This document shows, piece after piece, positions 13,589-37,281 of a stretch of DNA of 64,000 nt (its first letter is position 1; each line of letters begins with the position of its first letter). The DNA lies in assembly GCA_934747885.1 (NCBI GenBank), contig CAKVHE010000001.1, positions 5,424-69,423 of the forward strand, written 5' to 3'. Under the pieces are notes generated by a model. It did no database searches. It was not told the origin of the DNA and saw only the letters and a program-made list of their open reading frames with translations. Both the position numbers and the translations under genes were made by a program. The stretch comes from an uncultured Clostridia bacterium (lineage in GTDB: Bacteria > Bacillota > Clostridia > Christensenellales > UBA1242).

Positions 13589-15169
13589 TTATAATGAAAT
13601 TGTTAACGCTGGGCGAATGCCTCTACCGACATCGTACACATATCGGTCGTTTATATTTCCGTTAGGATTAACATGGGACGCAGCGTTATCCATACCGCCA
13701 GCTGAACGAAGCCAATAGTAACCACATAAAGTAGCTGCATTGATGTATGCGTTATTAACAATCGCAAAATCAGTTGGAACCGATTGGCGTCCTTTTTTGT
13801 TTAAATATAAATTTGTGCCGTAATAGGTATTACTTGCCTCGTAGTAACTTGCCAGCCACACATTATCCTCACAGGTAGATCCACCTGTAGTTACAGTATA
13901 GTCATCTTTGGTAGCATGCTCGCCTGTTCCAAAATATCTTGTAATGTTTTTAGTAATGTAGCCTTTATCACTGGCACTGAAAGCACTCGTGTAAAATGAA
14001 TTGTTGAGCCAGTCGCGGATGTTGCTCGCGCTCCATACATTACTACTTTTATCAAACATTACATTGGCAGTTAATATATTTTCACTAATTACCCTTAGGT
14101 TGGTGGTTGAACCAGTATAATCAGTTTTAGTTGCTGAATATGCCTCCAATAAGAACCATTTTATTGGTTCTACCTTAAACCAATAAGTATTGTAATTTGT
14201 AGCTGAAGTGCCAGTAGAAAATTTGTATTGTGCACTATTATCATCATTCACTACCGCACTCGCAACTTTAACATATTTTGCGCCATTGTAAGTATATTCC
14301 ACATGCGCAGTTTGAGCAGCGTCTTCGCTTGCACCTACAGTAAAGGTTCTACCGGTTTTGGCGCTATCACCTAATGCATTTAAGGCAGATACGGTTGTAG
14401 TGTCTGCTACCACTGTTTGTGGGTATTCACCCAGTTCTACATAATAAAAGTAGTTTCCATTTATTGGTTCTTCGGTTACTTTAATTTTAGATTCGGTAGT
14501 TGTATTTGTCGAGATACTAAAGTTTAATGTAAATTTCCAATCGGCGCTATCAATATTTACCGATTGAGTTAGATTAACGCGTGCTTCTGCTTTTATAAAC
14601 ACGCCTTCCCCACCATCCACCGTTACGCTGCCGCCATCCGTTAGAGAAGTTGTGCTATCAAAACTTGGAAGAGTGGAAACGGTAGATTTTGTGTAAGAAT
14701 AACTAACAATTATGTTTTTGTCCGTCACCGCTGGCGCTGTTAAGGTTACATTATTAGATGTCGAACCCTCTGGCAATACATAGTAAAAGTAATAAGTTAT
14801 TGCAACATAAGTTCTACCACCATTTACTATTTCTTTTATTTTATCGTTACTTACAAAGTTTATTTTTTCTTGTATGCTATCTAGGTTGGTTTGATTCACC
14901 CCAGAAGCACCGTTATACACGTTAAGCCAGCTAGTAGCGTTTGTGCTTTCACTCAAAACCTTGCTGGTGGTTCTGTCCGTGCCTGCAACATCACCCACGC
15001 GAGTGGCAAATAGTTGCCCTTCTACTGCATTAAATTCCAAATTAAGTTGGTTGGCAATTACAACTTGAAAATTGGTTAAACTTGCCATTACGCCAACTGC
15101 AATTAAAGATAAAGCACATACCATAGAAATTATGGTAGCAATTAACTTTGTTTTAGCGCTTTTGTTCAT
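13589..15169 (-). CDS. membrane-anchored or secreted surface protein, T/S/N-rich, with C-terminal WLRS...GIRPAL domain (DUF6273-like)
   Basis: N-terminal signal anchor (LIATIISMVCALSLIAVGVMA). C-terminus YWLRSAG...VNPNGNI...GRGIRPALTISL resembles the W-LRS/GVRPA domain of gut Firmicutes surface proteins (recalled, not searched). Confidence 0.6.
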   Translation of the reverse strand: MNKSAKTKLIATIISMVCALSLIAVGVMASLTNFQVVIANQLNLEFNAVEGQLFATRVGDVAGTDRTTSKVLSESTNATSWLNVYNGASGVNQTNLDSIQEKINFVSNDKIKEIVNGGRTYVAITYYFYYVLPEGSTSNNVTLTAPAVTDKNIIVSYSYTKSTVSTLPSFDSTTSLTDGGSVTVDGGEGVFIKAEARVNLTQSVNIDSADWKFTLNFSISTNTTTESKIKVTEEPINGNYFYYVELGEYPQTVVADTTTVSALNALGDSAKTGRTFTVGASEDAAQTAHVEYTYNGAKYVKVASAVVNDDNSAQYKFSTGTSATNYNTYWFKVEPIKWFLLEAYSATKTDYTGSTTNLRVISENILTANVMFDKSSNVWSASNIRDWLNNSFYTSAFSASDKGYITKNITRYFGTGEHATKDDYTVTTGGSTCEDNVWLASYYEASNTYYGTNLYLNKKGRQSVPTDFAIVNNAYINAATLCGYYWLRSAGGMDNAASHVNPNGNINDRYVYDVGRGIRPALTISL

Positions 15170-15208
15170 AATGTTCTCTCTTTTCGTTAGTATTAGCTTA
15201 TATATAGC

Positions 15209-35230: not shown

Positions 35231-35833
35231 ATGTCACTAAAATCACTTTTTGCCCGCAAGCCGGAGCCAACCCCCACCCCTTACACCAAAATTGACAATG
35301 TTACCTACTATCTTATGACCTGCGAAGAACTAGACCAACACCCATCACTTATTAAAAAGATGGATCGACTTCTTCACTCACAAGGTATTGCAACTTATGA
35401 CGGATTTCTTTTTGGCGGATACCACGTAAACAAAAATACTATCAACATTATTGGCGTAAACGATCAAGACAAAGCTGTAAGTTACGGCGAAATTTATTCA
35501 AACACACAAAATAATATTAGCGAAATTTTGTGGATTGTTGCCTACAAAGCCAAAAAGAACGAGCCGGTTAACTTTAAAAATTTAAAGCCACTAATTGATC
35601 TATTGTTAGAAGGCGCACACCTTCACGGCATTGATACCTTGTATGCAAAACTTTATGACAAAAGTTGGGGACGCATAAAAGACCCTATTGCCCTAATAAA
35701 ACGTTATGGTATTCCTTGCTACTCTGCAAAAGGCGAACACAAAGACCTTGGTTGCGACTATGATTGCAAAATTGACGTTAAGGAATATTTTGCCAAAAAG
35801 GACGCCAGCCTTGACGGCGCCGAAAACGAGTAA
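35231..35833 (+). CDS. hypothetical protein
   Basis: 200-aa ORF with AGGAGA 8 nt upstream. No recognisable motifs. Confidence 0.5.
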   Translation: MSLKSLFARKPEPTPTPYTKIDNVTYYLMTCEELDQHPSLIKKMDRLLHSQGIATYDGFLFGGYHVNKNTINIIGVNDQDKAVSYGEIYSNTQNNISEILWIVAYKAKKNEPVNFKNLKPLIDLLLEGAHLHGIDTLYAKLYDKSWGRIKDPIALIKRYGIPCYSAKGEHKDLGCDYDCKIDVKEYFAKKDASLDGAENE

Positions 35834-35863: not shown

Positions 35864-35892
35864 TTGACAATTATTAAAAAAAATGGTATTAT
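35864..35892 (+). promoter_or_regulatory. tRNA-Leu(UAG) promoter
   Basis: TTGACA-17 nt-TATTAT, about 30 nt upstream of the tRNA 5' end. Confidence 0.7.
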
Positions 35893-35922: not shown

Positions 35923-36007
35923 GCGGGCATGGCGGAACTGGCAGACGCGCTAGACTTAGGATCTAGTATCGAGAGATGTGGGAGTTCAAATCTCTTTGCC
36001 CGCACCA
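35923..36007 (+). tRNA. tRNA-Leu (anticodon UAG), CCA encoded
   Basis: Acceptor GCGGGCA/TGCCCGC, anticodon stem CTAGA/TCTAG with loop CTTAGGA, long variable arm, T-loop GTTCAAATC, 3' ACCA. Confidence 0.93.
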
Positions 36008-36142
36008 AACAAAAAGAACCAAACAGACAAATTTGGTTCTTTTTGTTTGTACTCTTCTTTTTTATTTATTCGTTCTTCTTTTTTCTTTTACTTTTTGGTT
36101 CTTTTTGAAATAAAAAATAAAAAAGAAAAAATAAAAGTGAAT
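36004..36142 (+). repeat. tRNA-Leu trailer block, copy A (homolog of 51446-51584 on the opposite strand)
   Basis: Aligned by eye at roughly 75-80% identity with indels over ~135 nt. Contains a second copy of the terminator 3' arm (TTTTTGGTTCTTTTT, 36092-36106). Confidence 0.8.
36011..36048 (+). terminator. intrinsic terminator after tRNA-Leu(UAG)
   Basis: AAAAAGAACCAAA-cagacaaa-TTTGGTTCTTTTT, then GTTTG. Confidence 0.8.
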
Positions 36143-36146
36143 GGTG

Positions 36147-36164
36147 CCGACCGCGCGCGGTCGG
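36147..36164. repeat. perfect 18-nt GC-rich palindrome
   Basis: CCGACCGCG|CGCGGTCGG embedded in an AT-rich spacer. Function unknown. Confidence 0.6.
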
Positions 36165-36299
36165 AAAATTAAAACAAAAAGCGGTTTATTTGCCAGCAAT
36201 TAAGTTCCTAGTCTTTTTAGTGCTTACATAAATATACTATATAAAAAGATGTGTATCTTTATAGCGAAGCGGGAAAACTCTATTATAGTTCCCCCGAAG

Positions 36300-36424
36300 T
36301 CACCGCAAAAACGGAACTTGCTTCCGTTTTTCGTTTGGCGGTGAGCGGCGCGGAAACTGGACGATAAACGACGCTTTAATGTGACCACATTAAAGCAAGC
36401 CAAAAGTCCAAGTTGAAGCGCACA
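36300..36424. ncRNA. structured tandem unit 1 (unclassified candidate RNA element)
   Basis: Clamp TCACCGC/GCGGTGA enclosing AAAAACGGAA-cttgc-TTCCGTTTTT, then a long irregular hairpin ending in GCTTTAATGT-gacc-ACATTAAAGC. Confidence 0.55.
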
Positions 36425-36426
36425 AT

Positions 36427-36555
36427 TCGCGACAAAACAGCACCCCGAATGGAGTGCTGTTTTCGTTTGGTCGCGAGAAGCGCGGAGACTGGACGATAAG
36501 CGACGCTTTGATGCAATTGCATCAAAGCAAGCCACAAGGTCAAGTCGTAGCGCAC
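36427..36555. ncRNA. structured tandem unit 2 (unclassified candidate RNA element)
   Basis: Same architecture with compensated stems: TCGCGAC/GTCGCGA, AAAACAGCAC/GTGCTGTTTT, GCTTTGATGC-aatt-GCATCAAAGC. Loops match unit 1. Confidence 0.55.
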
Positions 36556-36558
36556 GCG

Positions 36559-37281
36559 CTAAAAGTCGCCGTTGTGATAAATTTCTTGAACGTCGTCTAG
36601 GTCTTCAAGACCGTCATAAAGTTTTTCTAGTCTTTCGCGTTGGTCATCGGTTGGAACAATATAGTTTGATGGAATATATTCCACATCTGCGCTAGCAATT
36701 TGTATGCCAGATTGAGCAATTGCATCACGCACAGCGTGCATATCACGCGCGGTGGTATAAATGATAAAGTTGTCGTCTTCGGTTTGTAGGTCGTCCGCAC
36801 CGGCGTCGATGGCAATTTCAAACATTTTTTCTTCGGTTAAGCCGTCAGTTGCTTCCACAACAATAACGCCTTTTTGCTCAAACATATACGAAACGCTACC
36901 CGAAGTGCCCAAACTGCCGCCAAACTTGTCAAACAAGTGTCTTACATCGCCAGCGGTACGGTTACGGTTGTCGGTTAAGCATTCCACCAAAAACGCAACG
37001 CCGCCTGGGCCATAGCCCTCGTAACTTACGCTATCAAAGTTGATGGCGTTAATTTCACCACTAGCCTTTTTGATGCTACGAGTGATGCTATCGTTTGGCA
37101 TATTGTTAGATTTTGCTTTTGCAATTACGTCTGCCAATTTGTTATTGGTTGACGGATCTGCGCCCCCTGCCTTTACTGCAACGGCAATTTCTCTACCAAT
37201 TTTGGTAAAAATTTTGCCACGTGCTGCGTCGGCTTTGTCCTTTGTTTTTTTGATGTTGTGAAATTTTGAATGTCCGCTCAT
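36559..37281 (-). CDS. yebC: YebC/PmpR-family transcriptional regulator
   Basis: Start taken at MSGHSKFHNIKKTKDK (37281) behind GGGAGGA. YebC signature across the full length. Confidence 0.93.
   Translation of the reverse strand: MSGHSKFHNIKKTKDKADAARGKIFTKIGREIAVAVKAGGADPSTNNKLADVIAKAKSNNMPNDSITRSIKKASGEINAINFDSVSYEGYGPGGVAFLVECLTDNRNRTAGDVRHLFDKFGGSLGTSGSVSYMFEQKGVIVVEATDGLTEEKMFEIAIDAGADDLQTEDDNFIIYTTARDMHAVRDAIAQSGIQIASADVEYIPSNYIVPTDDQRERLEKLYDGLEDLDDVQEIYHNGDF

Follow-up and report, generated by a model that had tools for sequence, protein, structure and literature searches.

BOX elements of Streptococcus pneumoniae are mosaic repeats of the form boxA-boxB(n)-boxC that occur in more than 100 copies per genome, and to our knowledge no pattern of conserved loops with compensated stems has been reported for them. 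REPs of Enterobacteria and Pseudomonas measure about 35–40 nucleotides (nt), reach hundreds of copies, carry a GTAG-type head and are mobilized by RAYT transposases. Sibling small RNAs, for example LhrC1-4 and LhrC5 of Listeria or PrrF1/PrrF2 of Pseudomonas, each have their own promoter and 3' terminator. Small RNAs derived from 3' untranslated regions (UTRs), such as CpxQ, SroC and DapZ, share the terminator of their mRNA and are single-copy and conserved together with the host gene. In this work we analyzed a 64-kb window of genomic DNA from an uncultured Clostridia bacterium (contig CAKVHE010000001.1, positions 5,424 to 69,423; assembly GCA_934747885.1). Just past the stop codon of yebC, the window contains two head-to-tail units of roughly 130 bases, at window positions 36296-36423 and 36423-36555. 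Each unit is a selected single-strand fold made of two domains, A and B, as seen from the fold itself and from compensated changes in its stems. The units are the repeating part of a larger cassette, in which a leader L and a module P are followed by one to three A+B units.

Among these systems, intergenic repeats of the mosaic type (BOX, REP/BIME) and sibling small RNAs in tandem come closest to the cassette in behavior. With BOX it shares the intergenic position, the modular build with a strain-variable tandem internal module and the stable predicted fold; BOX is also co-transcribed with its neighbors, as the cassette may be. In contrast to BOX, whose modules are shorter, it has units of 127–134 nt with an embedded terminator-like hairpin, it is known from two to three loci, and there is no sequence similarity. 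REP/BIME clusters resemble it as mosaic groups of compensated hairpin repeats at gene 3' ends with a possible role as terminators or mRNA stabilizers. However, neither the size nor the number nor the head of REPs was seen here, and no RAYT/Y1 transposase is listed in the gene tables around either locus. Where REP or BOX elements would number tens to hundreds, we found two loci and a possible third in the window and the contigs read; the mosaic of modules, with a tandem number that changes by strain and with unrelated contexts, is nevertheless the one typical of such repeats. Like sibling small RNAs, which form head-to-tail units of about 100–130 nt with a terminator hairpin, the cassette has a copy at a second locus, conserved unpaired segments, diverging stems and a variable copy number. 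Its units abut, though, leaving no room for a promoter in each, and even a weak promoter-like site is confined to those preceded by P. A plus-strand reading would moreover place the terminator-like hairpin first, and the conserved loops are not C/U-rich anti-Shine-Dalgarno seeds. With neither the copy number of the repeats nor the promoter per unit of the small RNAs, and with no sequence relative, the cassette therefore fits neither group fully. In the minus-strand reading, unit 2 starts 5 nt beyond the stop codon of yebC, and the first putative terminator that the mRNA would meet forms its end, in analogy to 3'-UTR-derived small RNAs. Unlike these, the cassette is repeated, lies at more than one locus and is absent from the three yebC relatives checked.

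Units 1 and 2 can be aligned end to end with a mean column identity of 83%. A repeat search of the window returned a direct repeat of 96 nt, 80% identical and spaced by 132 nt; Tandem Repeats Finder did not list the pair. The 27-mer GCGCGGARACTGGACGATAARCGACGC is present exactly twice in the 64 kb, at 36348 and 36480, where 100 shuffles give an expectation of 0. Neighboring units abut, position 36423 being common to both, and 5 nt lie between the end of the last B and the yebC stop codon (36559-36561, minus strand). RNAfold predicts the same two-domain minimum free energy (MFE) structure for both units and on both strands, with z-scores of −4.7 to −8.4; none of 200 shuffles folded as well as the real units. 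An earlier note on this DNA had described two tandem units between tRNA-Leu(UAG) and the yebC stop, had named four helices in them and had called the element GC-rich inside an AT-rich spacer. The alignment, the direct repeat and the flanks bear out the first point, all four helices recur in the MFE structures of both units on either strand, and the G+C fraction is 0.50 in the units against 0.32–0.33 in the spacer.

Domain A is built as a 7-bp clamp around a terminator-like hairpin and an invariant CGTTTG bulge. In unit 1 it spans 36300-36344, with the clamp TCACCGC (36300-36306)/GCGGTGA (36338-36344), the inner hairpin AAAAACGGAA-CTTGC-TTCCGTTTTT (36307-36331) and the bulge at 36332-36337, as defined by the RNAfold structure and two inverted repeats (I19, I20). 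Its counterpart in unit 2 (36427-36476) is clamped by TCGCGAC/GTCGCGA, has the inner hairpin AAAACAGCAC-CCCGAATGGA-GTGCTGTTTT and places the bulge at 36464-36469, again on the basis of the fold and of inverted repeats (I12, I17). Domain B forms a rod in which two internal loops are conserved, an A is bulged and the tip varies. From its base, domain B of unit 1 (36348-36421) consists of a GCGC/GCGC helix, a 3x3 loop GGA/GAA, an 8-bp helix AACTGGAC/GTCC-A-AGTT with one bulged A, a large internal loop GATAAACGAC/AAGCCAAAA that may enclose a 2-bp helix, and a 10-bp tip hairpin GCTTTAATGT-GACC-ACATTAAAGC. The same series in unit 2 (36480-36553) reads GCGC/GCGC, GGA/GTA, GACTGGAC/GGTC-A-AGTC, GATAAGCGAC/AAGCCACAA and GCTTTGATGC-AATT-GCATCAAAGC. 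Loop 1 of domain B shows G-N-A on both sides in every unit. We assign no strand to these domains, nor to L and P, in the coordinates given here.

We collected 20 distinct units from many metagenome strains and from the second locus described below. Their alignment comprised 19 rows and excluded the inner part of the A hairpin, which MAFFT misaligned. Standard pairs filled 98.3% of its cells, compared with 33–40% when the 3' partners were slid by 1–3 columns, and the covariation score was 0.344 as opposed to at most 0.067. Changes on both sides were found in 18 of the 35 pairs (1–4 with slid partners), the units being paralogues and strain alleles that exchange segments, with about 2–4 independent versions per helix. 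Except for the pair-type count, none of 500 shuffles reached the observed pairing values. A segment-wise count with the inner A hairpin included gave 22 compensated helix positions out of 39. In the clamp (helix 1), three pairs are compensated between unit types. In the clamp and in the 8-bp helix, 30–60 nt separate the two arms, and swapping of whole local hairpins therefore cannot explain the changes in them. Unit u18 of the second locus goes furthest, as its B helices ACCCAACC/GGTTGAGGT and GCCCTACAAACA/TGTTTGTGGGGC replace the usual ones. Its B domain keeps the same architecture, the bulged A and part of the loops, with helices that have almost no sequence in common with the others; a B of this type also adjoins a 94%-identical orthologue of the 277-aa gene found at that locus. 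The compensated stems and kept loops proposed from the two window units alone are thus seen across the 19 units and hold in u18 as well.

Similarity between the yebC locus and the second locus, which carries spo0A, starts about 100 nt before the first unit. This start coincides with that of module L (36198-36262), an AT-rich leader of about 65 nt that is common to both loci and present in one copy per array; the flanks beyond it are unrelated. L contains the palindrome TTGCCAGCAA and a conserved −10-like TATAGT/TATAAT on the minus strand, and its pattern TAGTYTTTTTAGTRYTTACATAA has a single match in the window and one in each array of 18 loci. Module P (36263-36299, AGCGAAGCGGGAAAACTCTATTATAGTTCCCCCGAAG) precedes the first unit of every array. 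It is repeated internally in some strains (L005, L030), where [P-A-B] blocks are duplicated as a whole.

The exact YebC protein is encoded on 22 metagenome contigs from human-gut samples. While yebC differs by only 0–3 nt in 723 between strains, the arrays differ in the number and type of their units. At the yebC locus, one strain has three units, many strains have a unit 2 with other inner helices (GACTGACC/GGTCAAGTC) and another tip (GTTTTGCAGT/ACTGCAAAAT), one contig shows a third kind of A hairpin (AAAAATTTTTGC..GCAAAAGATTTTT), and two contigs stop within unit 2. Strains L002, L005 and L007 have unrelated sequence in place of window positions 36008-36197, although their yebC is only 1–3 nt different; the replacement carries a different terminator hairpin, AAGTCACACC-TTTT-GGTGTGACTT. 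Small conserved open reading frames (ORFs) in this spacer, which we had also considered, were rejected since the spacer is replaced in other strains.

A stricter pattern scan of metagenomes returned one contig with a unit in a different context, the second locus. There, a FloA gene, a gene for a 277-aa protein, the array and spo0A follow each other in one direction, and no tRNA is present. The array has 1, 2 or 3 units by strain and the same orientation relative to the upstream gene as at yebC. About 35 nt separate the end of its first complete B from the stop codon of the 277-aa gene, a distance that a degenerate tail narrows to about 8 nt. Truncated pieces, for example GGTTGCGGTGA-AGCGCAC-AAG, lie between or after the units. 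Two strains (L047, L048) have no array at the spo0A locus, where a deletion fuses CCGCACGG to GCGCACGG. Both loci belong to one genome, because a longest contig of 879,602 nt is listed for the exact YebC protein and for the 277-aa protein alike and because the same six samples contain the two loci. Within units, at least 10 contigs break off, which is the usual sign of a repeat.

No other copy of the unit, of L or of P was found elsewhere in the 64-kb window, and two loci plus one possible third were found in total. The possible third is seen on contig L008/L040 (3727-4573), where the yebC-proximal unit is followed by about 600 nt of other DNA and then by a remnant of the 3' half of a B domain. 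This contig also carries a gene 84% identical to window positions 14926-15184, the start of a DUF6273 protein (13589-15169), and represents either a third repeat context or a chimeric assembly through the repeat. The element is hence a low-copy, strain-variable, deletable repeat of one species and not a conserved locus-specific RNA. The earlier note had tied it to the tRNA-Leu/yebC spacer, which does not stand given the second locus in the same genome and a cassette that includes 36198-36299. As one outcome that would refute its view it had named a high-copy dispersed repeat in variable surroundings; this applies in part, as the context is indeed not conserved, but the repeat is low-copy.

The earlier note could match the element to no riboswitch, T-box, leader, toxI or CRISPR, in agreement with our Rfam scans and with the defining features of these families. 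Across the whole window, only 4 tRNAs reach the gathering threshold of Rfam 15. In a permissive scan of 36000-36620, all matches within the units stayed below threshold, the best being sraL with 19.4 bits (39 needed), followed by CRISPR-DR12 (15.6, 37 needed) and Enterococcus-1 (13.7, 71.4 needed); Rfam returned nothing relevant for the three-unit array of L030 either. The region had no BLASTN match in the phage and plasmid collections, and three scans of viral contigs by pattern were likewise empty. A GTDB scan with one genome per species and a strict pattern for the A-B junction (TTCGTTTGG-N7-11-GCGCGRARACTG), which would miss diverged relatives, gave five chance matches in G+C-rich coding DNA. 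Relatives of yebC in other species are at most about 71% identical, and in the three that we fetched (about 63–71%) other genes lie directly downstream and neither nhmmer nor covariance model R1 detected a unit. The literature search returned only general motif-discovery papers with motifs already in Rfam. The element is so far known from one species, a spo0A-bearing human-gut Firmicute, and is new at the sequence and family level.

Several candidate identities were rejected by their features. A T-box or another linkage to tRNA-Leu does not apply, as the second locus has no tRNA and no T-box model matches. CRISPR arrays have spacers between their repeats, whereas these units are contiguous and their repeats 80% identical. 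toxI-like RNAs of type III toxin-antitoxin systems are arrays of short repeats (about 36 nt) followed by a terminator and a toxin endoribonuclease gene; here the units measure 127–134 nt and the next genes are yebC (convergent), tRNA-Leu or spo0A. Domain B furthermore resembles a folded strand of an integron attC site: a symmetric unpaired spacer separates the outer helix from an inner one that has an extrahelical base, and the tip varies. attC sites fold as R''-L''...L'-R', have RYYYAAC/GTTRRRY cores and an outer helix of about 7 bp, and come with cassettes and IntI nearby. The outer helix GCGC/GCGC of domain B has 4 bp instead, AAC/GTT cores are lacking (unit 1 alone has a GTT), cassettes are absent, and the gene tables list no integrase.

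The hairpin of domain A has an A-run on one side and a U-run on the other; its core has free energies of −5.0 to −14.7 kcal/mol across units, with 4–6 U in the next 8 nt on both strands. The best is that of unit 2 on the minus strand (9 bp, −14.7 kcal/mol, then UUUUGUCG). No other terminator was found between the yebC stop codon and domain A of unit 2, and the yebC transcript must therefore run into unit 2; with no intervening terminator at either locus, the minus strand should accordingly be transcribed whenever the upstream operons are. The nested hairpins had been proposed as bidirectional terminators for converging tRNA-Leu and yebC transcripts. They are terminator-like in both directions, but tRNA-Leu does not need them as it has its own terminator.

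Evidence for the functional strand is split between plus and minus. In favor of the minus strand, every B is then followed by an A, which is the order of a structured domain and its terminator, and at either locus the stop codon of a minus-sense operon lies a short way ahead of the cassette. For the plus strand it speaks that L and P then lie upstream of the units. G.U wobble events number about 7 on plus and about 5 on minus, a count that does not decide the strand. For the mild plus-strand preference of the earlier note this count gives no proof, and the architecture argues for minus. No convincing promoter emerged when both strands of L and P were searched, also for the consensus sequences of sporulation and alternative sigma factors. 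A weak plus-strand promoter-like site, TTTATA-17-TATTAT, lies at 36258-36286 in module P and scores 9/12, with the final T of its −10 lost in most other strains. The −10 with the best conservation (TATAAT/TATAGT) is the minus-strand one in L, which faces away from the units and comes with a poor −35. In addition, the CGUUUG bulge could pair on the plus strand with UAARCG in loop 2 of domain B, and the variants UAAGCG and AAAAUG would be compatible with this pairing only via plus-strand wobbles.

With some hesitation, we favor a gene-end cassette that recombines, in which the A hairpins would act as bidirectional terminators and the B rod as a selected RNA fold. We base this mode of action on the position of the cassette after the stop codon at both loci and on the A that follows every B on the minus strand. 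Lying at the end of a minus-sense operon, about 5 nt (yebC) to about 35 nt (277-aa gene) past the stop, the cassette would let the upstream operon transcript run through B and end at the clamped hairpin A. B would thereby become a structured mRNA 3' UTR, or else B plus terminator might form a 3'-UTR-derived small RNA, and some protein or RNA partner could read the conserved B loops. The A hairpins may also block transcription from the opposite side. Recombination between units and at microhomologies would make arrays grow, shrink, swap modules or disappear. The fold with its compensated stems, the make-up of the cassette, the two loci in one genome, the polymorphism among strains and the lack of a known family are observed, and transcription of the cassette, termination at A, any role for B and the strand are inferred.

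A bolder proposal, which we consider doubtful, is that B represents a new structured RNA class absent from Rfam, possibly docked to A via the CGUUUG bulge and the UAARCG loop. B could then bind a protein or a ligand, or process itself, with tandem amplification placing several copies on one transcript, and the clamped terminator hairpins would serve as built-in boundaries or attenuators.

Several observations weigh against the gene-end cassette. The covariation is drawn from few paralogous alleles of one known species. A consensus terminator scan did not list the A hairpins, for which we suspect the extension of their stems over the A/T runs as the reason. Units past the first good minus-strand terminator would rarely be transcribed and yet are intact, and L and P lie downstream of the last minus-strand terminator, with no reason for their conservation in this model. 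Other points speak for the opposite strand. The G..A opposite G..A in loop 1 fits sheared G.A pairs on plus and becomes pyrimidine mismatches on minus, 67% of the unpaired positions are purines on the plus strand, the U-rich tail UUUUCGUUUGG is invariant there, and the mean MFE is −57.0 kcal/mol on plus compared with −55.7 kcal/mol on minus, minus being lower in 6 of 20 units. The same four features agree with an independent plus-strand noncoding RNA gene, possible though rather less probable to us, in which L and P would provide promoter and 5' leader and the A+B units the body, transcribed toward the stop codon of the convergent gene. It might yield sibling small RNAs, for instance, or a sponge or scaffold with repeated protein sites. 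The constant head-to-tail anatomy with L-P always on the side away from the neighboring gene and the whole-block duplication of [P-A-B] in L005 and L030 are also in line with such a gene, as are the higher number of plus-strand G.U events, which include an A-U, G.U, G-C series in the tip helix of unit 1 (u0, u2, u17), and the possible CGUUUG/UAARCG pairing with variants that would fit via plus-strand wobbles only. However, no plus-strand sigma-70 promoter is convincing, the best site at 9/12 having lost its key −10 T in most strains. The first element after P would be a terminator-like hairpin, and a single-unit array (L024) would have the odd layout P-A(terminator)-B. With no terminator behind the last B, transcription would continue in antisense into yebC or the 277-aa gene, and at the spo0A locus strains can do without the cassette.

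Unlikely, in our estimation, is a mosaic repeat that acts at the DNA level without RNA function, either REP/BIME- or BOX-like or a single-stranded DNA hairpin substrate. A transposase or recombinase would be encoded elsewhere, the symmetry would be kept for DNA recognition or simply inherited, and termination would be a by-product. The mosaic of L, P, A, B and truncated tails in two or more unrelated insertion contexts, the copy-number and presence/absence polymorphism among near-identical strains and the assembly breaks all agree with this. Wobble and A.C events are balanced between the strands, as expected without selection on a single RNA strand, and both arrays have the same orientation relative to the local majority gene direction, which may mean the same lagging-strand template if genes follow the fork. 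On the other hand, only two to three loci are known and no further module copy occurs in the 64-kb window; inspection of the two junctions revealed neither terminal inverted repeats nor a target duplication nor a common target, and the gene calls include neither a transposase nor an integrase within about 6 kb of the second locus or about 3 kb of the yebC locus. Loop nucleotides are moreover conserved more than stems even in the most divergent B, which needs a specific reader.

A tandem riboswitch or attenuator acting in cis, with B as aptamer and A as expression platform for a downstream gene, is very improbable, although the minus-strand order of a structured domain and a terminator is the classic one of riboswitches and spo0A follows downstream in the same direction at the second locus. 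Riboswitches hold a conserved 5' UTR position, but at the yebC locus neither strand has a gene downstream; the minus strand carries none after the units, where a tRNA and a gene, both on the plus strand, come next. The spo0A gene of the second locus starts 400–700 nt beyond the array, and array-less strains keep spo0A and its upstream region. Neither an alternative antiterminator pairing nor an Rfam riboswitch match was found, and the yebC-flanking DNA of the three relatives contains no unit. That the element is not real at all, but a coding remnant, a decaying duplication or an assembly artifact, we regard as practically negligible. A mechanical 103-codon ORF does span both units (36224-36535, minus strand), and one metagenome gene call enters such a frame; yet the same units are present in more than 20 independent assemblies from several studies, and the paired stem changes are predicted by neither coding nor neutral decay. 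We rejected a coding sequence, as had the earlier note, since the stem changes are compensatory and the only long ORF is the repeat read in frame, as is apparent from its repeated peptide KRRLSSS(L/F)RA. No gene is called over the yebC-locus array in the contigs spanning it. When the frame translation was compared with 5.8 billion proteins, one fused call at the second locus was returned; in contig L022 (protein P0121), the gene caller had joined the 277-aa gene to the repeat-derived frame.

If B works as an RNA, this uncultured human-gut Firmicute would harbor a structured motif without a match in Rfam 15, whose layout is unusual in that every repeat unit holds a clamped terminator. Copy-number and deletion variants occur naturally, and pairs of metagenomes and metatranscriptomes would then allow its function to be tested directly. 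If the cassette is only a mosaic, terminator-bearing repeat, it would account for the repeated breaking of contigs, and for possible chimeric joins, when this species is assembled and would show how gene-end regions are remodeled beside nearly identical genes. The known distribution in one species limits the general impact.

The genes next to the array at the yebC locus are the following. yebC (36559-37281, minus strand) belongs to the TACO1/YebC family (Pfam TACO1_YebC) and is the last gene of a thrS-infC-rpmI-rplT-spoU-like-yebC cluster. On the other side, outside the repeat, lies tRNA-Leu(UAG) (35923-36007, plus strand) with its own 18-bp terminator hairpin at 36006-36049. A near-consensus promoter, TTGACA-17-TATTAT with an upstream TG, directly precedes this tRNA at 35864-35892. 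A plus-strand gene for a 200-aa protein (35231-35833) beside the array has no Pfam match. Between the tRNA and the cassette (36008-36197) are the tRNA-Leu terminator hairpin, a T-rich/A-rich spacer and a G+C hairpin, CCGACCGCGCGCGGTCGG. In the spacer, the T-rich stretch at 36055-36088 and the A-rich stretch at 36108-36141 are 79% complementary over 34 nt and could form a long A-U hairpin; this complementary block (36055-36141) is confined to strains of the window type.

At the second locus, the 277-aa gene (L021, 3097-3930) has no Pfam match, and homologues of its protein at 94% identity or more are the only ones among 5.8 billion proteins, so that it appears lineage-restricted. Downstream of spo0A and a gene for a zinc-ribbon protein, a gap of about 1.6 kb (L023, 9069-10656) contains no called gene, and no unit was detected in it. 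Between the array and spo0A (L023 7300-7450, L027, L030) we observed a separate 39-nt hairpin repeat, TTGTTCCGGCTCTCTGCCGA(A/G)CCGC(C/A)GGCACTA, in 1–3 tandem copies by strain. The recombination that deleted the array in L047 and L048 has one of its ends inside this 39-nt repeat.

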